Source: an uncultured Bacilli bacterium (GTDB lineage Bacteria; Bacillota_I; Bacilli_A; RF39; UBA660). From it: a DNA stretch of 64,000 nt. Location: contig CAKONC010000001.1 in the NCBI GenBank assembly GCA_934096985.1, positions 494-64,493 on the forward strand, written 5' to 3'. The notes beneath the pieces are model-generated. The model did no database searches, was not told the DNA's origin, and saw only the letters and a program-made list of their open reading frames with translations. The translations under genes were made by a program, and so were the position numbers. Position 1 is the stretch's first letter, and every line of letters starts with the position of its first letter. Below are positions 1,940-64,000 of this stretch, in pieces.

Positions 1940-3763
1940 ATGTGTGGAATAGTTGGTTTTATAAATAGTAAGCCAGAAAAAGAAACAATTATTAAAGATA
2001 TGTCAAAGAAAATTGAACATAGAGGTCCTGATGGTGAGGGAATTTATATAGATGATAATTGTGCTTTAGCACATCGAAGACTTGCAATAATTGATTTAAA
2101 TACTGGCAAACAACCGATTTATAACGAAGATGAATCTTTAGTAATTGTTTATAATGGTGAAGTATATAATTTTCAAGAATTACGTGATGCTTTGGAAAAG
2201 AAAAATCATATATTTAAAACAAAAACAGACACAGAAGTTATTATACACGGTTATGAAGAATGGGGCTGTGATGTAACAAAGTATTTAAGAGGTATGTTTA
2301 GTTTTGCAATATGGGATAAAAACAAAAAAGAATTATTTTTAGCACGTGACGGATTTGGTATTAAACCACTTTATTATGGACTTTTTAATGATACATTTAT
2401 GTTTGCTTCAGAGTCTAAAGCTTTCTTGGCTAATCCAGATTTTGATAAGAAACTGAATGAAAGTATTTTATCCGCGTATTTATGTTTTAATTCAGTTCCA
2501 ACAGCAGAAACTTTTTTTAAGGGAGTCTATAAATTAGAACCAGGATCATATTTATTATATAAAGATGGAAAAACAAAAATTAAAAGTTTCTTTAGACTTA
2601 CTTTTGATGAAAAAAATAATTCTATGGAAGATATTACTGAAGATATTTCAAAAGCAATGGAAAATTCAGTTAAATATCACCAAATAAGTGATGTTGAAGT
2701 AGGGTCTTTTTTATCAAGTGGAATAGATTCTTCTTATATCGTTTCTCTTGCAAAACCTGATAAAACATTTACCGTTGGGTATGATAATCCTAAATTTGAT
2801 GAAATTACATATGCCAAAGATTTATCGGATAAATTAAATATTAAAAATTATTCAAAAAAAATAAGCATGGATGAGTATATTGAAGTATTTCCAAAAATAC
2901 AGTATTATATGGATCAACCACTTGCAGATCCATCTGCTATAGCATTATATTTTGTATCTGAAATTGCTTCCAAAAAAGTTAAAGTTGTACTTTCTGGAGA
3001 GGGTGCGGATGAATTATTTGCGGGGTATAATTCATATCAACAAGAACTTTCAATGCATTGGTATATGCGTATTCCATATTTTATAAGACATGGCATAGCC
3101 AGTGTTGCAGGATTATTTCCAGATGCTAAAGGATTTAATTTCCTTTACCGAAGAGGACAAAAATTAGAAAATTATAATATTGGGCTTGGTAGAGTATTTT
3201 GGGATAAAGAGGCAAATCACATTGTTAAATTAAAAGACCAAGTAAAAACTAAAGACATCGTAAAAAATGTTTATAAAGATTATGAAAATAATTCGACTTT
3301 AGTACAAAGACAAGCAATTGATTTTTATTACTGGCTTGTAAATGATTTTTTACATGCTGTAGATAGAAATACAATGATGTTTGGTCTTGAGGCAAGAACA
3401 CCATTTTTAGACAAAAAAGTTTATGATGTAGCAAGAAAATTACCTGATTATGCTAAAATTAGTAAAACTACCACAAAGGTTGCCTTAAGAAAAGCAGCTC
3501 AAAAAGTAATTCCTACTGAAGCTTATAAAAAGAAAAAATTAGGATTTCCAGTACCTTTAAAAGAATGGATTAAAACAGACAAACTTTATAATTTAATAAA
3601 GAAAAAATTTGAAAGTGATGATGCTAAGAAATTTTTTGATACAAAAAGGATATTAAAACTTTTAGATAATCATAAAAATGGTAAAAAAGATAATTATAAA
3701 AAAATATGGACTATATATACTTTTTTAGTTTGGTATGACATATATTTTAATCAATACGATTAG
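1940..3763 (+). CDS. asnB: asparagine synthase (glutamine-hydrolysing)
   Basis: N-terminal MCGI nucleophile, PP-loop-like FLSSGIDSS, 607 aa. Confidence 0.85.
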   Translation: MCGIVGFINSKPEKETIIKDMSKKIEHRGPDGEGIYIDDNCALAHRRLAIIDLNTGKQPIYNEDESLVIVYNGEVYNFQELRDALEKKNHIFKTKTDTEVIIHGYEEWGCDVTKYLRGMFSFAIWDKNKKELFLARDGFGIKPLYYGLFNDTFMFASESKAFLANPDFDKKLNESILSAYLCFNSVPTAETFFKGVYKLEPGSYLLYKDGKTKIKSFFRLTFDEKNNSMEDITEDISKAMENSVKYHQISDVEVGSFLSSGIDSSYIVSLAKPDKTFTVGYDNPKFDEITYAKDLSDKLNIKNYSKKISMDEYIEVFPKIQYYMDQPLADPSAIALYFVSEIASKKVKVVLSGEGADELFAGYNSYQQELSMHWYMRIPYFIRHGIASVAGLFPDAKGFNFLYRRGQKLENYNIGLGRVFWDKEANHIVKLKDQVKTKDIVKNVYKDYENNSTLVQRQAIDFYYWLVNDFLHAVDRNTMMFGLEARTPFLDKKVYDVARKLPDYAKISKTTTKVALRKAAQKVIPTEAYKKKKLGFPVPLKEWIKTDKLYNLIKKKFESDDAKKFFDTKRILKLLDNHKNGKKDNYKKIWTIYTFLVWYDIYFNQYD

Positions 3764-5173: not shown

Positions 5174-5261
5174 GCTCGTATGGCGGAATTGGTAGACGCG
5201 ATAGACTCAAAATCTATTTTTCCAAAAGAAAGTATCGGTTCGACCCCGATTACGAGCACCA
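5174..5261 (+). tRNA. tRNA-Leu(CAA), long variable arm, CCA encoded
   Basis: Acceptor GCTCGTA/TACGAGC, anticodon loop CTCAAAA, T-loop GGTTCGA, 88 nt. Confidence 0.85.
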
Positions 5262-11356: not shown

Positions 11357-11708
11357 TATCTTTAGACAAACGCTATAAATTAGTTTTTATAGAGGAAAGT
11401 CCATGCTCACTTATCCTGTGATGGATAAAAATGTTCGTGTTTAAGGAAAAAATAACTTAAAGTAGTAATTTATTACTAACGGCTCTGAAAATTTCTGAAA
11501 ATGAAATGATTAAGTATAAAAGTGCCAAAGAGACGAGTCTTTTAGAAATAAAAGAAGTGGAACGTGGTAAACCCCGCGAGTGAGAAACCCAAATTTTGGT
11601 AGGGGAGCTAGTCAAAGGAAACTGAACTAATGACTGGATGTAGCTTGCTACATAGATAAATGTTTGTCACCATTTTATGGTACAGAACATGGCTTATTAA
11701 GATATTAT
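11354..11708 (+). ncRNA. rnpB: RNase P RNA (type B, Firmicutes-like)
   Basis: Conserved GAGGAAAGTCCATGC and ACAGAACATGGCTTA blocks. P1 pairing TAATATCTT (11354-62) with AAGATATTA (11699-707). Same gpsB-rnpB neighbourhood as Bacillus. Confidence 0.8.
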
Positions 11709-20081: not shown

Positions 20082-20158
20082 GGGGAATTAGCTCAGCTGG
20101 CTAGAGCACCTGCCCTGCACGCAGGGGGTCGCGGGTTCGAATCCCACATTCTCCACCA
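20082..20158 (+). tRNA. tRNA-Ala(TGC), CCA encoded, atypical C33
   Basis: G3:U70 in acceptor GGGGAAT/ATTCTCC. Anticodon loop CCTGCAC. T-loop TTCGAAT with a C50-A64 mismatch. Confidence 0.75.
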
Positions 20159-23717: not shown

Positions 23718-23793
23718 GCTGGAGTAGCTCAGTTGGTAGAGCAATGCACTCGTAACGCATAGGTCATAAGTTCGATCCTTGTCTCCAGCACCA
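23718..23793 (+). tRNA. tRNA-Thr(CGT), CCA encoded
   Basis: Acceptor GCTGGAG/CTCCAGC, anticodon loop CTCGTAA, T-loop TTCGATC. Confidence 0.85.
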
Positions 23794-25236: not shown

Positions 25237-25313
25237 GGCGGAATTGGTGAAGTGGTTAACACGGTAGATTGTGGCTCTATTATGCAAGGGTTCGACTCCC
25301 TTATTTCGCCCCA
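25237..25313 (+). tRNA. tRNA-His(GTG) with encoded G-1 and CCA
   Basis: G-1 opposite C73, acceptor GCGGAAT/ATTTCGC, anticodon loop TTGTGGC, T-loop TTCGACT. Confidence 0.85.
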
Positions 25314-29874: not shown

Positions 29875-31005
29875 CTACTTTTTATAATATACATCAATGT
29901 CAACATAATTATTTATTCCATCAACTTTACCATTACTTGCAAGTTGCCACATAACATAAGGTCCTTTGTAACTTGTTTTTTCCGTGTAATGTGCAAGCCA
30001 AATATCATGCTTTACGGGTAACCAAATATACTCTAAATATGATTTTGAACCATAATGTACTGTTTCATAGCCAGCATTATTTAATATATCTAAATATGTA
30101 TTTGAAATTTCTCTTAAGTCGAATAAGTTAATCTGTGCAGCATTAAAATATTTAAAGTTTTCCCAGTCAAATGCAATTGGTAAGTCAATATTATATCCTT
30201 TTATATTATCAAGTACAAAATTTGCTTCCTCTTTAGCATCTTCGATGCTTTTTGCATACGAATAAAAATATATGCCAACTTTAATACCATTTTCAGTGGC
30301 ACCTTTGATATTTTCTAAATAATAGGGGTCTAGGTTTAATGGTTCATCATAATAGTACCTATATCCAAGTCTAATAATAGCAAATTCTACGCCAGCATCT
30401 TTTACTTTTTGCCAATCAATTTTTCCTTGGTACTTTGATACATCAATACCTATTAATGTATCATCAGTTTTATGTTTTTGATATACGTCATTAAACTCTA
30501 AGTAATTTGTTAAAACACCATTTGTGTAACCGCCTGTGCTTTTACTTTTTTCTTTTATAATTAGCTTAAAATCTTTACTGGCTTTATTACCACTTTGATC
30601 TTTAGCAATATATTTTAAGTTATAGGTTCCTAAAGTATTAACATCATAATCACCTTCAATATAACAATTTGGAGTTCTATCAGCATTATCCATACAACTA
30701 ATTTCATTTGCTATGTCATTTTCATAACCAATATCACGTGTTATTGAATTTGAGACCCAAATTATTGGAGCAGTTGTATCAACAACATTATATTTAATTT
30801 TATAATTTTTATTCTGGCATTTTATAGTTTCTTCATGATTTCCAATAAATGATGTATCAAGTAACTTGCTTTCACATTTAATATTATTAACTATATTTTT
30901 AACATCAACTTTAGAAAAGTATTCAAAAGTATTCTCACTTAGCGTAATATCTTTATTACATCCACATAATAGTAGCAAACTTATTAAAATAATTATCTTT
31001 TTCAT
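29875..31005 (-). CDS. GH25 muramidase lipoprotein with Ig-like domain
   Basis: MKKIIILISLLLLCGC lipobox. DTTAPII Ig-like segment. C-terminal GH25 (GIDVSKYQGKIDWQKVKDAGVEFAIIRLGYR). Confidence 0.7.
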   Translation of the reverse strand: MKKIIILISLLLLCGCNKDITLSENTFEYFSKVDVKNIVNNIKCESKLLDTSFIGNHEETIKCQNKNYKIKYNVVDTTAPIIWVSNSITRDIGYENDIANEISCMDNADRTPNCYIEGDYDVNTLGTYNLKYIAKDQSGNKASKDFKLIIKEKSKSTGGYTNGVLTNYLEFNDVYQKHKTDDTLIGIDVSKYQGKIDWQKVKDAGVEFAIIRLGYRYYYDEPLNLDPYYLENIKGATENGIKVGIYFYSYAKSIEDAKEEANFVLDNIKGYNIDLPIAFDWENFKYFNAAQINLFDLREISNTYLDILNNAGYETVHYGSKSYLEYIWLPVKHDIWLAHYTEKTSYKGPYVMWQLASNGKVDGINNYVDIDVYYKK

Positions 31006-31132
31006 ATACATAAATTTTATCAATAATTATTTGTTAATACAATAATTTTATGGTATAAAAATTAAATAGTTATTTTTCCCTTTATTTATGTGCTTTTTCT
31101 AATTTTTAGGTACTAATTTAGGTACTTATATT

Positions 31133-32263
31133 CTATAAATTATTTAATAAATCAACGATTTTATCTTGTGCAGTAGGGAATAAGTGCATATATACTTCTT
31201 GCATAACTCTTAAACTATGTCCCATTCTTTGTGACATCATTAAGAAGAACTTTGTTGAATCGTTAGCTCCGGATTTTAAATATTCATTTATACATAAACT
31301 GACGTGTGAATGCCTAAACTCGTGAATAGTTATAGCTTTACTTTTAAGATTTGCCAACTCAAAATATTCATCTTTCTTTTTATCAATCCAGTAATCAGTT
31401 AATACGTCACCATTTCCAAAAACAAACCAATCTTCACTAAAATCACTATATTTTTTTACTATTTCTTTATAATGTGATAATTCATCAAATAGAATATTAG
31501 ACATTGTGATTTCCCTATTTAAACAATTCTTTGTTGCAGTAATTTTATATTTGCTATTTTTGGTAATAAAAGAGATGGTTTTATCAACTTTAATGGTTCT
31601 TCTATATAAATCTATATCTTTCCAAGTAAGAGCTTGTATTTCGCCTTTTCTCATGCCTGTAAAGTATAATGTTAAAAAGAAGCAATGATATAGATCATCA
31701 TTTATTACATTTATAAATTTACAATAATCTTCATAAACAATATATCTTAATTTATTTTTATTTTCAACAACTTCATCATTTCTCTTTTTAAAGCGTCCTG
31801 ATAAAGCAACTGGATTATAATTTAATTCAAACTTTCTATTAGCATAAGTAAATATTTCTTTAAAAACAACATAATATTGATTGCAAGTTGAAATTTTAAT
31901 ATTTTTACTTATGAGTTTATTTTTCCATTTTTCAATATCTACTACTTGTATTTCATCAATAAATTTATTTTTGAAATAGGGTAAGATATTGTTTTTATAT
32001 TGTGAATAGTAAGTCAATAGAGTAGATTCTCTTATTCTTTCTTTTGCGTCTTTAAAATAATCATCAGCTACAATATCAAACTTTTTCTTTACGGGTGTAT
32101 TTCTATTTAATAAAAATACTCTTTCTTCGGCTTTTGCTTCTTTCTCTAATAAAAATCTTTTAGAAGTATAAGGGACAAGTTTTCCATCAGCGTTGTGATA
32201 ATATACTTTAAATCTCCATTGACGACCATCTTTAGTCTTTTCTTTATCTTTAAATACTGACAT
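31133..32263 (-). CDS. int: tyrosine-type site-specific integrase
   Basis: C-terminal catalytic pattern GMRKGE...HEFRHSHVS...GHS...YMHL; SAM-like N-terminal domain. Confidence 0.85.
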   Translation of the reverse strand: MSVFKDKEKTKDGRQWRFKVYYHNADGKLVPYTSKRFLLEKEAKAEERVFLLNRNTPVKKKFDIVADDYFKDAKERIRESTLLTYYSQYKNNILPYFKNKFIDEIQVVDIEKWKNKLISKNIKISTCNQYYVVFKEIFTYANRKFELNYNPVALSGRFKKRNDEVVENKNKLRYIVYEDYCKFINVINDDLYHCFFLTLYFTGMRKGEIQALTWKDIDLYRRTIKVDKTISFITKNSKYKITATKNCLNREITMSNILFDELSHYKEIVKKYSDFSEDWFVFGNGDVLTDYWIDKKKDEYFELANLKSKAITIHEFRHSHVSLCINEYLKSGANDSTKFFLMMSQRMGHSLRVMQEVYMHLFPTAQDKIVDLLNNL

Positions 32264-40937: not shown

Positions 40938-43109
40938 ATGAGAAGTTTAGTTATATTAAGGGGAAGTCCTGCAAGTGGTAAATCTACTTGGGTTAAAAAA
41001 ATGGGCTTAGAAAATTATACTTTATGTGCAGACACAATTAGGTTATTAGTTGAAAGTCCTATAATTGTACCTGATAAAAATCATAGAGTAATTAGTCAAA
41101 AAAATGATAATTATGTATGGCAATTATTGTTTGAATTATTGGAGAAAAGAATGAGTAGAGGGGAGTTTGTGGTAATAGACGCTACACATAGTAGATCGAG
41201 TGATTTTAGTAGATACAATAAACTTTGTGAAAGATATAGATATAGACGCTACTATGTTGACTTTAGTGATGTGTCTATTGAAGAATGTAAAAAAAGAAAT
41301 GCTTTAAGAGAAGATTATAAGAGAGTACCAGAAAATGTTATTGATAAAATATATTCACGATTAAAAACACAATCTAAAACGAGTGGTTGGATAGAGGTAG
41401 ATAAAAATAATTTTTGGAATGAAATAGGAATGAAATTATTTGATTTAAGCCATTATTCTAAGATTCATATTTTTGGCGATATTCACGGGTGCTACAATCC
41501 GTTAAAAGAGTATTTTGATAATAACCCTTATAATCTTGACGAGATGTATATTTTTTGCGGAGATTATACGGATAGAGGATTGCAAAATAAAGAAACTTTG
41601 CTATTCTTAATGGAATTAGCTAAAAATAAAAATGTATTATTTTTAGAGGGAAATCACGAAAAATGGTTAAATTATTATTCCCTAGATGAATATGAAAATA
41701 TAAAAAGTAAAACATTCTTAAATAAGACTATGCCTGAGATTATTGACATTGATAAAAGTGAGTTAAGAAGTTTTTATAGAAGAATCGGTCAAGTTGCATA
41801 TTTTGACTATGACGGAAAGAAATATTTAGTATCTCACGGAGGAATCAGCTATGTTCCTGATGAATTACAATTAGTTGCTACTGAACAATTTATCAATGGT
41901 GTTGGTGACTATAATGTACAAATAGATGAAATATTTTTAGAGAATGAAAAAGATAAAAATATTATGCAAGTACACGGACATAGAAATATTTTTGAAATAG
42001 ACGGAAATCAATATTCAGTTAATCTTGAGGGAAAGGTTGAATTTGGAGGATTCTTAAAAGTAATGATACTAGAAAAAGGAAAACTTCCATCTATAGCTAA
42101 AATAAAAAATAATTATTTTGGTAAGCCTGAGGAAATTAATGAATTTAATGAGTGCCGAGCTAAAATAACAAATATACCGATGGTAGAACAATTAAGAATG
42201 TCAAAGGACATAAGAGAAGTAGCTTTAGGAAATAATATTAGTTCATTCAATTTTACAAGAAACGCTTTTTACAATAAAAAATGGAATGAATTAACTTGTA
42301 AAGCTAGGGGATTATTTGTGGATACTGAAAAAGATAAAGTGGTAGCTAGAGGCTATGAAAAATTCTTTAATATAAATGAAAAAAAGGAAACTGAGTTAGA
42401 ACATCTATTAGTTAAATTTAAAGATAAAATAACTTGCTATAAAAAAGAAAATGGTTTTTTAGGTATATTATCTTTAATAAATGGAGAATTATTTTTTGCT
42501 AGTAAATCAACTAACAAAGGCGTCTTTGCTGATTATTTTAAGAAAATATTTGACGAAAGTTGTATTGATAAAATTAAATTAATTAATTATTTAAAGAATC
42601 ACGATGTGTCTTTAGCTTTTGAAGTAATTGATATTGAGAACGATCCACATATTATAAAATATGATAAATCAAAAATAGTATTATTAGATATTATTTATAA
42701 TGACTATGAATTTAAAAAAGAACCTTATGAAAAAGTAGTAGAATTAGCAAAATTATTGTGCTGTGAATGTAAAACTATTTATAAAGAGTTTGATGATGTT
42801 AGAGAATTTCATAAATGGTATTTAGATAACACTGATGAAGAAGATTTGTCTAAAGAAGATATAGAGGGAGTAGTTATTGAATCATCAGGAATTATGACTA
42901 AATTAAAATTCCCATACTATAATTTTTGGAAATTTATGAGGAGAGTAAAAGAACAAGTAGCTCATAAAGGAACTCCTAAGTTATCTAGTCTATTTAATCC
43001 TACAGCTAACTATTTCTACGCTTGGCTAAAGAAACAAGATGAAGAAACTTTAAGTAAAGATATTATCACTTTAAGAGAAAAATTTTACAATGAGGATTTC
43101 AATGAATAG
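40938..43109 (+). CDS. trifunctional RNA-repair enzyme: polynucleotide kinase + metallophosphatase + RNA ligase (Pnkp-like)
   Basis: GSPASGKST P-loop. Phosphoesterase motifs GDIHGC, GDYTDRG, GNHE, SHGG, VHGHRN. Ligase motif I KKENGF plus EGVVIES...TKLKFPYY. Confidence 0.7.
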   Translation: MRSLVILRGSPASGKSTWVKKMGLENYTLCADTIRLLVESPIIVPDKNHRVISQKNDNYVWQLLFELLEKRMSRGEFVVIDATHSRSSDFSRYNKLCERYRYRRYYVDFSDVSIEECKKRNALREDYKRVPENVIDKIYSRLKTQSKTSGWIEVDKNNFWNEIGMKLFDLSHYSKIHIFGDIHGCYNPLKEYFDNNPYNLDEMYIFCGDYTDRGLQNKETLLFLMELAKNKNVLFLEGNHEKWLNYYSLDEYENIKSKTFLNKTMPEIIDIDKSELRSFYRRIGQVAYFDYDGKKYLVSHGGISYVPDELQLVATEQFINGVGDYNVQIDEIFLENEKDKNIMQVHGHRNIFEIDGNQYSVNLEGKVEFGGFLKVMILEKGKLPSIAKIKNNYFGKPEEINEFNECRAKITNIPMVEQLRMSKDIREVALGNNISSFNFTRNAFYNKKWNELTCKARGLFVDTEKDKVVARGYEKFFNINEKKETELEHLLVKFKDKITCYKKENGFLGILSLINGELFFASKSTNKGVFADYFKKIFDESCIDKIKLINYLKNHDVSLAFEVIDIENDPHIIKYDKSKIVLLDIIYNDYEFKKEPYEKVVELAKLLCCECKTIYKEFDDVREFHKWYLDNTDEEDLSKEDIEGVVIESSGIMTKLKFPYYNFWKFMRRVKEQVAHKGTPKLSSLFNPTANYFYAWLKKQDEETLSKDIITLREKFYNEDFNE

Positions 43110-59274: not shown

Positions 59275-61056
59275 ATGGCAAGTAAAAATATGATTGAACA
59301 ACTTAAAAAACCTAAGAGAAATCTTGGGTTTTTGAAAGTTAAATTTAATATAGTGGATCCGGAAACTAATCCGGACTTATCAAGTAATAGTGAAGAGATA
59401 TTTAGTGACTTAGATAATATCAAAGAAACAACAATACCTCAATCTAAAAATTATGCTACACTTGAAAAAAACTTTTGGCTTCTTAATGATAGTCAGCCAA
59501 TATATGGTAGTGAAGAACTTGAACAAACTTATGTGAGTTCTTATATGAGTGATAAAAATTGTTTGTTTAGTGATAAAGCTTGTATAACTCTTACATCAAG
59601 CGTTTACTTAACTACTTTAGGACTTACAATGGTTTTTGATAGTATTGATAAAAACTATGCAAAAAAACTAAAGGTAAAAGCATATAGAGATAGCACTATG
59701 ATTATGGATAAAGATTATACTTTGAGTAGTTATAGTGATAGATTAATTTTTGCTGATAATGAAGAGTTAGTTAGATGGAATAAAATTGAAATATATTTTA
59801 TAGAATCTAGTTTACCTTATAGGAGAATAAGAGTAAATCAATTACTATTTGGTATTATGGAAACATATACCGATGAGAACTTAATTAGTGCTGAAAGTAA
59901 AGAAAAAACAACAATGATAAACTCGGAGCTTCCTACTCATACATTTAAGTTTACTATTGATAATATGAATAAATTGTTTAATCCTGATAATCCACAAGGC
60001 TGGTATAGATATATATTACAGCAACAACCTATTTCTTATGAATGGGGCTATCAATTAGACGATGGAACTATTGAATGGATATTAGGTGGAAAAATGCTTC
60101 TTACTGGTTCGGTAGAGGTTGGAGAAAATCAAGTATCATTTAGTACGACTTCACTTATCAATTATCTTACTAAAGTATATAAAAAAGGAGTGTATAATTC
60201 TAGTGGTAGAAGTTTGTATGATTTGGCGGTAGATGTATTAGAAGATAGTAATATAGATAGTAGCCAATATAATTTATGGAGTGGCTTAAAGTCGATTAAG
60301 ACTGACGCACCTTTACCTAAATTAGAAGCTAGACAATTACTTCAAATAATAGCAACTACTGGAAATTGTATTTTATTTACTAATAGAGAGAATGTTATAA
60401 ATATTCAACCTTTTAACTATGTATTAAATCCTGATGGAATGAGTTATGATTTTATTACTAGCAATCCTGTAGTTAAAGTACAAAGTGAGTTACATAATAC
60501 TATCATATATATAAATCATTATTCTAAGGAAGATAATGTAAGTGAATTGTTTAAAAATGAATCTTTAGAGATAACAGGAACAAAGACTATTGAAATAGAA
60601 TATGACTTAGCAACTGACATATCAGCTACTATAACAGGCGGAACTATTGTTAGTGCTAATTATTATGGTAGATATGCAATGTTAAAAATTACTAATACTG
60701 GTGAAGATACAATATCTTTAAAAGTATCAGGTAAGAAAATAAATAATAGTCAAACAATAGATTCAAAAAAATTTAATGATGATGGTGAGAATATTGAATA
60801 TAAAAACGATTTGATTACTCAAATGGTTGAAAGCTCAAAAGAAACTAAATTAAAAGACTTTATAGGAAACTGGTACAACAATAGAAATATTTACTCTTTT
60901 GAAAATAGAGGAGATATTGTAAAAGATACTAGAGAGATTATTCCTATAGAAACTGACTTTAGTAATAGTTTAATTGGTTATTTAGTAGAAAACAATATAA
61001 ACTATGATGGAGCTTGGTCTGGTAATAGTGTAGTAGTAAAAGTAGGTGATAACTAA
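59275..61056 (+). CDS. tail/baseplate structural protein
   Basis: 593 aa, by position. Confidence 0.45.
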   Translation: MASKNMIEQLKKPKRNLGFLKVKFNIVDPETNPDLSSNSEEIFSDLDNIKETTIPQSKNYATLEKNFWLLNDSQPIYGSEELEQTYVSSYMSDKNCLFSDKACITLTSSVYLTTLGLTMVFDSIDKNYAKKLKVKAYRDSTMIMDKDYTLSSYSDRLIFADNEELVRWNKIEIYFIESSLPYRRIRVNQLLFGIMETYTDENLISAESKEKTTMINSELPTHTFKFTIDNMNKLFNPDNPQGWYRYILQQQPISYEWGYQLDDGTIEWILGGKMLLTGSVEVGENQVSFSTTSLINYLTKVYKKGVYNSSGRSLYDLAVDVLEDSNIDSSQYNLWSGLKSIKTDAPLPKLEARQLLQIIATTGNCILFTNRENVINIQPFNYVLNPDGMSYDFITSNPVVKVQSELHNTIIYINHYSKEDNVSELFKNESLEITGTKTIEIEYDLATDISATITGGTIVSANYYGRYAMLKITNTGEDTISLKVSGKKINNSQTIDSKKFNDDGENIEYKNDLITQMVESSKETKLKDFIGNWYNNRNIYSFENRGDIVKDTREIIPIETDFSNSLIGYLVENNINYDGAWSGNSVVVKVGDN

Positions 61057-61595
61057 TGGCGTGGATAGATCCTATATATGATAGAACACAAGCTGATGTT
61101 GATTTAATAAAATTAGATCCAACTAATAGCAATAATAAAGGTGCTTATAATTATACTGACTTAAATAGAATAGAAAGTAATTGTGAATATATAATGAATC
61201 TACTAAATAATAGTGATTTATTTTATTATCCAATCAATATAGAAGTAAAAACTGATTGGAATGTTAAAGACATACCTCACATTAAAGATATAAATAGAAT
61301 AAGACAAAATATTCTAACTTTAAAAAATGGTATGAATCTAGGTGAAGAATATAAAGAAATAGAATTTAGTAAAACAATGGATTATATTAAAGCTAATATT
61401 CTTGAAAAAGATTTAACTTTAATAAAAGGTATTATTGATTCTTGTATGAGAGAATTAAGAAAGTGTAATACTTTCTATTGTGGAGCTAATGGTATTGGTT
61501 TGTATGCTAAGCCTGATAATCAAGAGCCTGTCGGCTTTGTAAAAATAAAACAATATGCAGGTTTGATATATTGTGGAGAGGAGTTTAGTTTATGA
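61056..61595 (+). CDS. tail-associated protein
   Basis: ATGA-type overlaps on both sides. Confidence 0.35.
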   Translation: MAWIDPIYDRTQADVDLIKLDPTNSNNKGAYNYTDLNRIESNCEYIMNLLNNSDLFYYPINIEVKTDWNVKDIPHIKDINRIRQNILTLKNGMNLGEEYKEIEFSKTMDYIKANILEKDLTLIKGIIDSCMRELRKCNTFYCGANGIGLYAKPDNQEPVGFVKIKQYAGLIYCGEEFSL

Positions 61596-63136
61596 AACAA
61601 TATAATAAAACGAATTGGAAAGATAGAATAGTTCAATTTCCTAATAGATATAAAGACCAAGATAACAATATTATAACTTTAACTCAAGATCCGGGCGAAG
61701 TTGCTCAAGATGGAACTCTTGTAGAAGCTGAGAAGATGAATAATATTGAAAATGGAATTGAAGAATCATTTAAAAATAGAGATTTTGGATATTCTACTAC
61801 TTTACTCGTGGCTAACTGGACTAAAAACACTAATACAGGATACTACGAATATGATATAATAAATGAGGACATTACAGCTCAAACTATTGTTGATGGAATG
61901 TTGGATATTGAAAATCAAGCTAAACTAAATATTGCTTATACTTTATCTTATACAGGTGGATTTAAAGTAATAACTACTGAATTACCTAATGAAGATATAG
62001 ATATAACTTTCAAATATTCATTGTTGAATAGTGATGATGAAAATTTAGTAGCAAGAGGAACAATAAATGTTAGTGCTATTGATACTAAAAATATAAATAA
62101 AATATATGGTATTAAAAGGTCATTAACTACATCGTCATCAGCTTGGGAGAGAATAAAAGACGCTGTGGGACTTGTAGCTAACGCTCAAGTAGGAACAACG
62201 CCTGTAAGAAATGATTTTGATGAAATTTATCCGTGGAGTGATATAATTTCGTACAATTATGATATAACAGCTAAGCAAATAACCGCCTATTATGGTGATC
62301 CAACCTTTAAATTTGATGGTTCAAATGGTGATGTATTTACCAAGATACCTGAATTTTATTGGAAAAGATATAGAGATGAAAATTATGAATATATTTTAAT
62401 CTCAAAAAATAAATTAGCTGGTTATATTAAAAGTGAAGAGTTTTCGGTTGGTAGATATACTATGTCAGGTAGTGAATCAAGAGTTTATAGTAGAAGTGGA
62501 TACGCACCATTCACAAATAAAACTATTACAAACTTTAGAAGTTATGCAAGAAGTTTAGGAGCCGGATTCGGTCAAATGGACTGGCACTATTTTATCTTAC
62601 AAATGCTTTACTTAGTAGAATATGCTGACTATAATAGTCAATCTAAACTTGGTTTAGGTTATACTAATGGCTCTCACACAGCACCAATAAATAGTGGTGG
62701 TTGTGATGTACTGGGTATGAAGTCAGGAAGCAAAGACGGAACTGATAATACTTCTATGATTTATAGAGGTATTGAAGATATATTCGGTAATATATGGCAA
62801 TTTGTTGATGGAATCAATATTAAAGATAGAAAAGCTTATATTTGCTATGATTCTAATAAATATGCTGTAGATACATTTAGTGGTAGTTATAAAGCTTTAG
62901 GTTATACTAATGCAACCGCTAATGGATTTGCTTCTAAGCTAGGATATGATTCCGCTAATCCTATGGTAGCGTTAGCTACTGAATCAGCTGGAAGTAGTGA
63001 TACTAATATGTGTGATTATTATTACCAAGCTGAGGGAGATAGGATTGCTCTTGTCGGCTTGTGGTTTTGGTGGTTTGCTGGTACTTCCTCTTATTTTGGT
63101 ATTGCGACCGGTGCTCGACTTCTTAGAAACCAGTAA
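61592..63136 (+). CDS. receptor-binding tail fibre with FGE-sulfatase/C-type-lectin-like C-terminal domain
   Basis: YRGIEDIFGNIWQFVDG resembles the FGE-family GNVWEW motif. C-terminus ALVG..LWFWW....SS.....GARLL is the first unit of the downstream cassette array. Confidence 0.6.
   Translation: MKQYNKTNWKDRIVQFPNRYKDQDNNIITLTQDPGEVAQDGTLVEAEKMNNIENGIEESFKNRDFGYSTTLLVANWTKNTNTGYYEYDIINEDITAQTIVDGMLDIENQAKLNIAYTLSYTGGFKVITTELPNEDIDITFKYSLLNSDDENLVARGTINVSAIDTKNINKIYGIKRSLTTSSSAWERIKDAVGLVANAQVGTTPVRNDFDEIYPWSDIISYNYDITAKQITAYYGDPTFKFDGSNGDVFTKIPEFYWKRYRDENYEYILISKNKLAGYIKSEEFSVGRYTMSGSESRVYSRSGYAPFTNKTITNFRSYARSLGAGFGQMDWHYFILQMLYLVEYADYNSQSKLGLGYTNGSHTAPINSGGCDVLGMKSGSKDGTDNTSMIYRGIEDIFGNIWQFVDGINIKDRKAYICYDSNKYAVDTFSGSYKALGYTNATANGFASKLGYDSANPMVALATESAGSSDTNMCDYYYQAEGDRIALVGLWFWWFAGTSSYFGIATGARLLRNQ
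63050..63125 (+). repeat. cassette copy 0 (expressed, VR-like), 60 nt between anchors
   Basis: CTTGTCGGC at 63050 and GGTGCTCGACTTCTTA at 63110. Encodes LVGLWFWWFAGTSSYFGIATGARLL. Confidence 0.8.
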
Positions 63137-63137
63137 A

Positions 63138-63191
63138 GTGGGGGTTTGGGGGCGACCAGCCTCCCATAAAAAGAATCGACTTTAGTCGATT
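63138..63191 (+). promoter_or_regulatory. GC-rich element + 7-bp/4-nt-loop hairpin just after the fibre stop (IMH/cruciform-like)
   Basis: GTGGGGGTTTGGGGGCGACCAGCCTCCC (63138-65), then AATCGAC-TTTA-GTCGATT (63174-91). Absent after copies 1-4. Confidence 0.4.
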
Positions 63192-63259
63192 ATAAAAATA
63201 AAATTACCTTATTGGGAATGATGTGTAGTTGAGTAGATGTCCTTTGTTTTGCTGATTTT

Positions 63260-63365
63260 CTTGTCGGCGGTCAGTGGAGAAGTGATTTTGAAGATGGGTT
63301 GTTTGCTTCTAGTTGGAGTGCTACTTCCGGTCTTACCACTACCGACATCGGTGCTCGACTTCTTA
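63260..63365 (+). repeat. silent cassette copy 1
   Basis: Anchors at 63260 and 63350 (90 nt apart). In-frame LVGGQWRSDFEDGLFASSWSATSGLTTTDIGARLL. Confidence 0.8.
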
Positions 63366-63426
63366 TAAGGGATTTGATGTGTTTTGTACCGGTTTGTAGT
63401 TCTAGCTACTTGTTGGTTTCTTTGCT

Positions 63427-63532
63427 CTTGTCGGCGGTAATTGGAACAACACTTCCAAGGCTGGCTTGTGGTATTGGAATTTCAATAACGCTTCCTCTAA
63501 TATGTGGACTACCATCGGTGCTCGACTACTTA
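63427..63532 (+). repeat. silent cassette copy 2 (Asn-codon rich)
   Basis: Anchors at 63427 and 63517 (90 nt apart). LVGGNWNNTSKAGLWYWNFNNASSNMWTTIGARLL. Confidence 0.8.
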
Positions 63533-63585
63533 GTTTAATAATGGGACTTGATGTGTAAGAGTACTGGCTTGCTATGAGCTTTGCT

Positions 63586-63691
63586 CTTGTCGGCGGTATG
63601 TATTGGGACACTTTGACTTGTGGCTTGTGGTATTGGGCTTTAGATCATACTTCGTCCTATGTTTATTCCGATACCGGTGCTCGACTTCTTA
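63586..63691 (+). repeat. silent cassette copy 3
   Basis: Anchors at 63586 and 63676 (90 nt apart). LVGGMYWDTLTCGLWYWALDHTSSYVYSDTGARLL. Confidence 0.8.
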
Positions 63692-63740
63692 TTTATAGGG
63701 AAATGATGTGTATGAGAGTGCCTGTCATACTTCCAATCAT

Positions 63741-63846
63741 CTTGTCGGCGGTAGATATGGTCTTGGTTTACCGGCTGGCTTGTGGTGTTGGACTATGAAC
63801 AATACTTCGTCTAATGTTGCTGTCAATATCGGTGCTCGACTTATTA
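63741..63846 (+). repeat. silent cassette copy 4
   Basis: Anchors at 63741 and 63831 (90 nt apart). LVGGRYGLGLPAGLWCWTMNNTSSNVAVNIGARLI. Confidence 0.8.
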
Positions 63847-63916
63847 TATTAAGATACTCATTATGGGATTTGATGTGTTTTGTGCTGGTGTTTTTCTCTT
63901 TGTATATACTTTTGCT

Positions 63917-64000
63917 CTTGTCGGCGGTGCTTTTGATGGTACACTTTCTTATGTCGGCTTGTGGTATTGGTGGTTTGCTGAAACTTCCTCTTATTATGGT
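63917..64000 (+). repeat. cassette copy 5 (TR-like relative to copy 0), truncated by window end
   Basis: LVGGAFDGTLSYVGLWYWWFAETSSYYG... Identical to copy 0 over 48 nt except at 4 positions, all A in copy 5. Confidence 0.75.

Follow-up and report, generated by a model that had tools for sequence, protein, structure and literature searches.

A prophage-borne diversity-generating retroelement without Avd and its tandem array of candidate template modules

In the usual view a diversity-generating retroelement (DGR) has one invariant template repeat (TR), and the diversity that it writes into its variable repeat (VR) is confined to adenine positions. The 64,000-nucleotide stretch of DNA considered here (the window; from an uncultured Bacilli bacterium, GenBank assembly GCA_934096985.1, contig CAKONC010000001.1) ends with the gene of a phage tail protein followed by five related repeats in tandem, in the following called cassettes. 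A reading of the window from its sequence alone took the 3′ end of the gene for the VR of a DGR and the fifth cassette for its TR, and left cassettes 1-4 unexplained. The locus raises the question why one VR should be accompanied by five TR-like cassettes and, if several of them are used, how one is chosen. Taken as a whole, the answer in which we place good confidence is that this is a prophage-borne, Avd-less DGR that diversifies the C-terminus of a tail fibre via a tandem array of five template modules, the choice among which would be made by base pairing with a single spacer RNA (Sp).

The retroelement and its expressed repeat

Cassette 5 is cut by the end of the window. A 265-kb metagenome scaffold (ENA ERZ28614341 scaffold_45; locus L001) encodes a target protein identical to that of the window and shows 0 mismatches across 12,409 overlapping nt. 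Since it equals the window at every overlapping base, it was used as the continuation of the window past position 64000. The exact target protein is present on seven contigs.

The continuation contains, starting 165 nt past the window end, a gene for a reverse transcriptase (RT) of 356 aa (L001 12574-13644, equivalent to window positions 64165-65235). The RT belongs to Pfam RVT_1 (E 1e-16) and PHROG phrog_1423, and its best match in the PDB is the DGR RT of a Bordetella phage (8ub7, E 1.2e-34), to which residues 6-322, nearly the full length, can be aligned. IGNYTSQ stands opposite IGSLTSQ of 8ub7, and YMDD is present. A DGR-type RT downstream of the array is what the sequence-only reading had expected; the findings it had named as speaking against a DGR (no RT near the array, mismatches at other template bases, an invariant VR) were not obtained. 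Its expectation of an Avd or HRDC accessory gene was disappointed: among the flanking genes and 33 small open reading frames (ORFs) of the prophage none matched Avd, HRDC or similar families (PF05635, TIGR02436). According to one survey, DGRs without Avd ("Architecture A") make up 26% of the curated DGRs, and one RT lineage lacks avd entirely (PMC5758913). Because this class is already known, the missing Avd is compatible with a DGR, and we place the element in the Avd-less class.

The target gene (61592..63136, + strand; 514 aa; PHROG phrog_5302 'tail protein', E 1e-45) encodes a phage tail (receptor-binding) protein; upstream of it are the tape-measure and tail genes, and downstream a tail-fibre assembly gene and the lysis genes. 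Its VR (63045..63125, +) is an expressed copy of cassette 5 with an in-frame deletion of 33 nt. Realignment of 63053-63100 with 63953-64000 confirmed that the 48 nt differ at four positions, all of them among the six adenines of copy 5; the chance of 15/194580 calculated by hand for this coincidence is arithmetically correct. When the alignment was completed via L001, the adenine specificity was kept: in the core, 51 nt from a TGTCGGC heptamer to GGTGCTCGAC, 5/5 mismatches lie on the 9 template adenines (P = 5.4e-5).

At the 5′ side the alignment is less simple than had been thought. The 14 nt described as identical upstream, TTGCTCTTGTCGGC, do occur in copy 5, but at 63912-63925, 27 nt upstream of 63953 and not contiguous with it. 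The VR is shorter than copy 5 by 33 nt (11 codons), which had been missed. Only in copy 5 is the heptamer TGTCGGC present twice (63919 and 63952), with a spacing of exactly 33 nt, and a loss bounded by these heptamers fits a 5′ junction that was resolved at the wrong repeat. The 3′ edges, CGACCACTTA in copy 5 and CGACTTCTTA in the VR, differ at one template A and, by a C-to-T change, at one non-A position. Whichever cassette was the donor, the VR of each related locus keeps its own version of this 3′ tail. The tail is never replaced by donor tails and hence lies outside the transferred segment.

The 90% cluster of the target protein comprises 1,320 distinct sequences, mostly of 524 aa, as compared with 172 for the RT. 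Among the matches listed, 23/34 positions vary within the VR and 33/482 elsewhere in the protein; judged by these sequences, the target protein's cluster is hypervariable in the VR only. The VR sits at the C-terminus of a tail protein; the C-type-lectin/FGE fold assigned to this end is only suggested, by a sub-threshold match to 5vf4 (E 0.24 with the single sequence, 0.09 with a profile; two collinear stretches, GNxWxW and GG.W..G..AGL...VGAR). Searches of the target protein against Pfam and NCBIfam gave no domain, and the AlphaFold single-sequence model of the target domain has a predicted local distance difference test score (pLDDT) of 32, too low for use.

Two elements just beyond the VR may, judged by their conservation, be its target-site signals. 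The first is GC-rich (GTGGGGGTTTGGGGGCGACCAGCCTCCCA, 63138..63166), a candidate target-recognition signal with a role analogous to that of the initiation of mutagenic homing (IMH) sequence. It is conserved after every VR and after no cassette, and it is gone in the deletion genotypes described below. The second, the hairpin ATCGAC-TTTA-GTCGAT (63175..63190), is a candidate equivalent of the hairpin/cruciform at DGR target sites; its arms co-vary between loci (CCGAC..GTCGG, ATCGCC..GGCGAT).

A VR that varies while the TR stays constant is seen in two pairs of related loci (L009/L010 and L024/L060), each with identical cassettes and different VRs; some cassettes differ between genomes by A-only changes, a caveat to the constancy of the TR. 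With the RT, the completed alignment and the hypervariable VR in hand, the TR-to-VR signature first noticed in the window is borne out, and there is hardly any doubt that the locus is a DGR.

Template use in related arrays

The five cassettes downstream of the VR are direct repeats whose ends are conserved (CTTGTCGGCGG ... GGTGCTCGAC) and whose middle part varies. GGGAnnTGATGTGT stands upstream of each, and one inverted copy of this motif, ACACATCATTTTCC, follows cassette 5. A module is made up of a 5′ arm of 13-14 nt (GGGAnnTGATGTGT), a spacer of ~35 nt and, as the template, 104-107 nt that are conserved at the ends; the last module is followed by one Sp and one RT gene. The cassettes, all on the + strand, are located at 63260..63365 (cassette 1, ..GGQWRSDFEDGLFASSWSATSGLTTTDIGARLL, A-poor and degenerate), 63427..63532 (cassette 2, GGNWNNTSKAGLWYWNFNNASSNMWTTIGARLL, an AAY-rich template module), 63586..63691 (cassette 3, GGMYWDTLTCGLWYWALDHTSSYVYSDTGARLL), 63741..63846 (cassette 4, GGRYGLGLPAGLWCWTMNNTSSNVAVNIGARLI) and 63917..64025 (cassette 5, the RT-proximal template and donor of the window VR, cut at 64000). 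The AAY codons earlier noticed in copies 2 and 4 are there, encoding NWNN..NFNN..N and MNN..N..N. For cassettes 1-4 as additional VRs of cassette 5, a possibility that was considered and rejected, the non-A differences from cassette 5 are too many (e.g. 15-27 versus the VR), and the GC-rich element and the hairpin are lacking.

Whether cassettes other than the fifth serve as templates was answered with 195 related loci, of which 80 were found in IMG/VR by RT, 35 in metagenomes by target protein and 80 in species-representative genomes by RT; their cassettes were located with a hidden Markov model of the cassette. Distant relatives (RT roughly 50-79% identical) have an ordinary VR, one TR and an RT. 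An array of 2-10 cassettes between VR and RT characterizes a subclade with RTs at least ~77% identical, plus one locus at 67% (L058). Many of the cassettes are found again in independent samples, where their relative order is kept.

In loci with complete VR and array, the VR was compared with every cassette of the same genome, and mismatches were counted at the adenine sites of the cassette (A sites) and at all other sites (non-A). The best cassette was number 6 of 7 in L009 (12/25 A sites and 1/84 non-A sites changed) and in L010 (10/25 and 1/84), number 6 of 8 in L005 (6/20 and 2/88), number 1 of 4 in L024 (9/19 and 1/90), and number 2 of 4 in both L060 (6/21 and 0/88) and L026 (14/24 and 1/85). 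The remaining cassettes of these six loci have 15-43 non-A mismatches. Pooled over 24 distinct complete loci, 187/503 A sites (37%) had changed as compared with 36/2070 non-A sites (1.7%), and most of the donors are internal cassettes. Species-representative metagenome-assembled genomes (MAGs) agree: in L117, L118, L119, L123, L126 and L134 there are 0 non-A mismatches each.

The VR of most complete loci is thus either an adenine-mutagenised internal cassette or a chimera of two cassettes. The chimeras, recognized with a two-state path model, have their junction in the central GLW(Y)W segment, which is conserved: the VR of L013 consists of cassettes 10 and 3 (8/25 A sites, 0/84 non-A), that of L020 of cassettes 4 and 3, and those of L117 and L118 are likewise chimeric. 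Most telling are loci with the same array. L009 and L010 share seven identical cassettes, and their VRs differ at adenines of the internal cassette 6; L024 and L060 share four identical cassettes, of which the first gave rise to the VR of L024 and the second to that of L060. Use of the last cassette is somewhat above the expectation for uniform choice.

Cassette types 2, 3, 4 and 5 of the window are each a donor in close relatives; cassette 1 is not. Cassette 2 was the donor in L083 (12/24 A sites, 0/83 non-A), and L084 and the protein P0015 look, at the level of protein sequence, as if derived from it. Cassette 3 was the donor in L008; it is present as an exact copy at the expression site of L082, and the C-terminus of P0011 is identical to it. 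Cassette 4 gave rise to the VR of L005 (6/20 A sites and 2/88 non-A sites changed), and P0002 resembles it. Cassette 1 is found at an expression site solely in deletion fusions (L090, L093, P0008 and, on a truncated contig, L088). The VR-proximal cassette, in the window (63260-63365) as well as at first position in L006, L008, L009 and L013, is A-poor, has lost the GLWYW core and is very different between genomes. From all these loci we conclude that several cassettes very probably serve as templates in this phage lineage.

RNA elements around the templates

How one Sp could serve several templates is suggested by the sequences that flank them. Downstream of cassette 5 the 3′ arm ACACATCATTTTCC (window-equivalent 64039-64052) is followed by a hairpin (64053-64066) and by an RNA that matches the Rfam family RF03021, RT-18, end to end and above the gathering score (64054-64147, L001 12463-12556; 54.5 bits, gathering score 41.3); RT-17 matches the same region below threshold. 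The catalogued 'RT-n' motifs appear, from these matches, to be spacer scaffolds of DGRs. The RT-18 model differs from the Sp described here in that it begins at the hairpin after the 3′ arm, without the duplex that closes the template, the templates or the array.

The 5′ arm and the 3′ arm form a helix enclosing the template, and across the RT family the two arms change together, as in the pairs TGGTGTGTG/TACACACCA, TAGTGTGTG/TACACATTA, AGGGATATAACGCGC/GCGCGTTATATTCCT and AGGGTGTAGCCGCGG/CCGCGGCTACATCCT. Covariation was counted for three named helices in a 27-locus alignment, with slid partners as controls and 500 shuffles. The three helices are 88.7% paired as compared with 36-46% in the slid controls, and 0/500 shuffles reach the observed values; compensatory changes occur in 19/26 pairs overall, in 10/15 of the closing duplex and in 3/5 of the hairpin. 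The 3′ arm is followed by the hairpin NNNGC-NCTT-GCNNN and then by adenosines, a layout that is also that of the "cPRT Stop" element in the Bordetella phage DGR RNA (bioRxiv 10.1101/2023.10.23.563531).

This pairing is available to every module. The upstream arms of 57/57 cassettes in 10 arrays pair with the single 3′ arm (-10.7 to -20.7 kcal/mol); the duplex energies of controls average -5.2 kcal/mol, and the sequence that precedes the VR does no better than the controls. In the window the predicted upstream strands of the 'Stop' duplex, all on the + strand, are arm 1 (GGGAATGATGTGT, 63214..63226, -17.8 kcal/mol versus the control mean of -5.2), arm 2 (GGGATTTGATGTGT, 63369..63382, -15.8), arm 3 (GGGACTTGATGTGT, 63543..63556, -16.3), arm 4 (GGGAAATGATGTGT, 63698..63711, -20.7, the strongest pairing with the 3′ arm) and arm 5 (again GGGATTTGATGTGT, 63865..63878, -15.6). 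The spacers adjoining the arms have diverged to 37-39% identity, a comparison that is partly circular because the segments were anchored on the arm core; retention of the arms was judged on unanchored duplex energies instead of on arm-versus-spacer conservation.

The other end of the template also pairs with the Sp. Cassette 3′ ends of the CTTAT type have their complement in A(A/T)ATAAGAA, a conserved segment of Sp, and the pairing between TR 3′ end and Sp is more stable in cognate than in swapped pairs (5,000/5,000 permutations). The 3′ ends of internal cassettes are still complementary to this segment.

We therefore propose, the arms being retained at every internal cassette, that the cassettes are template modules complete in themselves, one of which at a time would be engaged by the single Sp through alternative base pairing. 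The 3′ arm of Sp would pair with the 5′ arm of the chosen module to give the equivalent of the 'cPRT Stop' duplex, and A(A/T)ATAAGAA would pair with the CTTAT-type 3′ end of the same module as the template:primer duplex. The adenine-mutagenised cDNA would then replace the whole VR or its 3′ part, the VR being marked by the GC-rich element and the hairpin. The 33-nt deletion in the window VR would result from resolving the 5′ junction at the wrong copy of TGTCGGC, which is duplicated in module 5 only. For selection of the template by alternative Sp pairing, taken by itself, the arm and Sp sequences give a modest preference.

Several points weigh against this proposal. Copy-choice jumping from the last cassette would yield the same products as alternative pairing. 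The proposed primer strand lies at the 3′ end of Sp, and that of the Bordetella phage just 5′ of the Stop strand. VR-proximal cassettes as a class have the strongest 5′ arm and 3′-end pairing, yet their use as mutagenic donors was not seen. Donor assignment takes the best-fitting cassette, which inflates the fit somewhat, although unselected per-cassette counts show the same contrast. In the window's own genome cassette 5 is the sole demonstrable donor, the use of cassettes 2-4 being deduced from close relatives that share these cassettes, and all data are assemblies of uncultured material.

The rival to be taken most seriously, which we nevertheless regard as unlikely, retains the several templates and lets the RT always start on the RT-proximal cassette, from where the nascent cDNA would jump across to a different one, either at GGTGCTCGAC, which the cassettes share, or in the central segment GGCTTGTGGTATTGG. 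The conserved 3′ block of 10 nt and central block of 15 nt are where such jumps would be expected and where chimeras are joined, the last cassette is used somewhat more often than by uniform choice, and there is a single Sp. The internal 5′ arms would, however, have no role, and every one of them is retained amid diverged spacers; copy-choice leaves this retention unexplained, as it does the complementarity to Sp of internal 3′ ends. In the Bordetella phage, moreover, the Stop duplex is needed for cis-priming and termination.

Two other explanations of the arms were rejected. Five direct copies and one inverted copy of a motif would also suit a site-specific invertase or shufflon, but the cassettes are co-oriented with the VR, arm variants keep G-U pairing, and the arms co-vary as an RNA helix. 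A 'bridge', in which the arm downstream of a cassette pairs with the 3′ arm and later cassettes are looped out, disagrees with the structure of the Bordetella phage ribonucleoprotein, in which the Stop strand is upstream of the template.

In L013 a second inverted copy of the arm core (ACACATCA) is present at 3692 (- strand), between cassettes 9 and 10, besides the copy after cassette 10. By its sequence it may be a second 3′-arm-like site within the array. A promoter and terminator scan of the array gave counts not above those of shuffled sequence and is uninformative on transcription units.

Recombination, related systems and the prophage

The cassettes are direct repeats and, as such, recombination also acts on the array. 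In six loci (L003, L004, L084, L090, L093 and L095) the gene is fused directly to a cassette with loss of the GC-rich element, and the same fusion is seen in L088, on a truncated contig, and in the protein P0008. In these genotypes the hairpin is gone too, and the fused ORF often continues into spacer sequence. Prophages of this genotype would be locked, if the two elements are what their conservation suggests. Frameshifted VRs occur in L087 and L091. The VRs of L082 (0/15 A sites, 0/92 non-A), L102 and L085 are exact or near-exact copies of cassettes, which are unlikely to come from mutagenic homing. Going by the sequences of such loci, homologous recombination is a process that deletes parts of the array and can copy cassettes unmutated.

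These unmutated copies, the frequency of deletion fusions, and the SSB and NinB encoded by the phage would all suit silent-cassette gene conversion of the pilS/pilE or vls kind, with homologous recombination choosing the cassette and the RT having no part in the choice. Recombination cannot, however, give changes confined to donor adenines, of which 37% have changed versus 1.7% of the other sites, nor VRs that, as in L009 and L010, differ at cassette-6 adenines only. Recombination is thus a second process rather than the main one, and as a full account of cassette choice we judge gene conversion very improbable.

Slightly less credible still is a canonical DGR in which cassette 5 is the sole template and cassettes 1-4 are inert relics of template or VR duplications. 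It has in its favour that the window VR matches cassette 5 only, that this cassette alone ends in CGACCACTTA and adjoins Sp and RT, and that many relatives have one VR and one TR; it is contradicted by the A-mutagenised donors that are internal in most complete loci, by identical arrays with different donors, by the functional-looking 5′ arms kept in 57/57 cassettes beside spacers of ~37-39% identity, and by cassettes recurring in the same relative order in independent samples. That variant VR haplotypes of a mixed population were concatenated in assembly, as could be feared of hypervariable VRs known from metagenome assemblies throughout, is practically negligible, given unique spacers between the cassettes and a 5′ arm before each, an order that recurs in dozens of assemblies made independently, in different projects and from different hosts, seven contigs with the exact target protein, and cassette tails systematically unlike the VR tail.

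Diversified sequence has also been written into the array. Among 129 distinct true array cassettes, half-segments were sought in which all differences from a putative parent fall on one base of this parent; this base was A in 11 cases, with as many as 8 substitutions, C in 3, T in 4 and G in none. The excess of adenine-only half-segments indicates that adenine-mutagenised sequence has entered the array. In the window the 5′ half of cassette 4 is an A-only derivative of a cassette encoding RYDNGLPAG. The last cassette of L085 and the third cassettes of L024 and L095 are chimeric or differ at another cassette's adenines alone.

A-mutagenised sequence inside stored cassettes opens the possibility of a genetic archive of past solutions. 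Adenine-mutagenised VR sequences that had proved useful would return to the array, either through gene conversion or through retrohoming into one of its cassettes, and could later be redeployed, recombined in halves and mutated again. We put forward only tentatively, as somewhat doubtful, that the array is such a writable, heritable store of receptor-binding variants with template choice by Sp pairing. If it were, diversification would proceed on two tiers, cassette choice with mosaicism and targeted hypermutation, in its logic like immunoglobulin gene conversion plus somatic hypermutation.

Of the known systems the DGR of BPP-1 (mtd-avd-TR-brt) is the closest. Both transfer sequence from TR to VR with adenine specificity into the C-terminus of a phage receptor-binding protein by means of homologous RTs (8ub7, IGxxxSQ motif). 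Both have a GC-rich element and a hairpin beside the VR, pairing of the TR 3′ end with Sp, and a 5′ junction that is imprecise and homology-dependent. Both share the cPRT Stop layout, in which a TR-upstream segment forms a helix with the spacer and a short stem-loop and adenosines come next. In place of the one invariant TR of BPP-1 there are five TRs here, and relatives have as many as ten; every TR has a 5′ arm to itself, while a single Sp is common to all. Unlike in BPP-1, there is no Avd gene, and an Avd-binding stem-loop would not fit into the 13 nt that separate TR and 3′ arm. What may be the primer strand is located at the 3′ end of Sp instead of 2 nt before the Stop strand as in BPP-1, and the GC-rich element lies outside the VR/TR homology, within which the IMH of BPP-1 is found.

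With 'Architecture A' DGRs, as they are described in PMC5758913, the element shares the gene order target, TR, RT on one strand and the lack of a recognizable avd, HRDC, MSL or CH1 gene; the TRs given there are single units adjoining the RT and not, as here, a tandem array. The main DGR surveys and recent mechanistic papers, searched with a coverage that leaves subscription journals aside, describe no natural array in which alternative templates stand in tandem and supply a single VR; what comes nearest is a Stenotrophomonas DGR (PMC6642488) that has two TRs, together with six VRs lying in different genes. The canonical DGR feature that fails here is the single template per VR.

The array also resembles Neisseria pilE/pilS, Borrelia vlsE/vls and chicken immunoglobulin gene conversion with hypermutation: one expression site stands beside unexpressed partial cassettes with conserved flanks, the expressed copies are mosaics, and cassette choice is combined with point mutation. 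In contrast to all three, transfer is mainly RNA-templated and adenine-mutagenic via the RT, rather than DNA conversion dependent on RecA or AID. The cassettes are in direct orientation and co-linear with the RT; the likeness is one of logic, not of homology.

Differences among the cassettes extend to their length and to non-adenine positions, and cassette halves can be combined; the sequence space within reach is therefore far larger than that of a single template and is entered from several starting points. If Sp does select the template by alternative pairing with 5′ arms, the cPRT Stop duplex would also act as a selector, and selection by pairing would be a design rule for engineered DGR mutagenesis with several templates and one RT.

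The hosts of the related loci are uncultured gut Bacilli labelled "Tenericutes" or Mollicutes and available as MAGs only. These labels agree with the class B RNase P RNA gene of the window (11358-11701, 270 bits). Together with this gene, four tRNA genes (Leu-CAA at 5174, Ala-TGC at 20082, Thr-CGT at 23718 and His-GTG at 25238) belong to the left half of the window, where the DNA is chromosomal and the host is of Bacillota or Mycoplasmatota type. Among prophages of human and animal gut Bacilli the lineage is common, and it offers an accessible natural model, its hosts being so far without a cultured member. A megablast search of window positions 61000-64000 against a phage collection gave no match; the nearest RT of a cultured phage is that of Lactobacillus phage LBR48 (53% identity).

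The prophage begins on its left with a tyrosine integrase (31133-32263, - strand) and extends beyond the window end up to an endolysin (L001 14873-15718). Just outside, at 29875-31023 (-), a GH25 muramidase with an Ig-like surface domain is encoded. Within the prophage a protein of 723 aa (40938-43109, +) combines an AAA_33 kinase, a calcineurin-like phosphoesterase and a T4-type RNA ligase 1 domain. By its domains it is a single-chain RNA repair enzyme of the Pnkp plus Rnl1-like type, presumably countering anticodon nucleases of the host.

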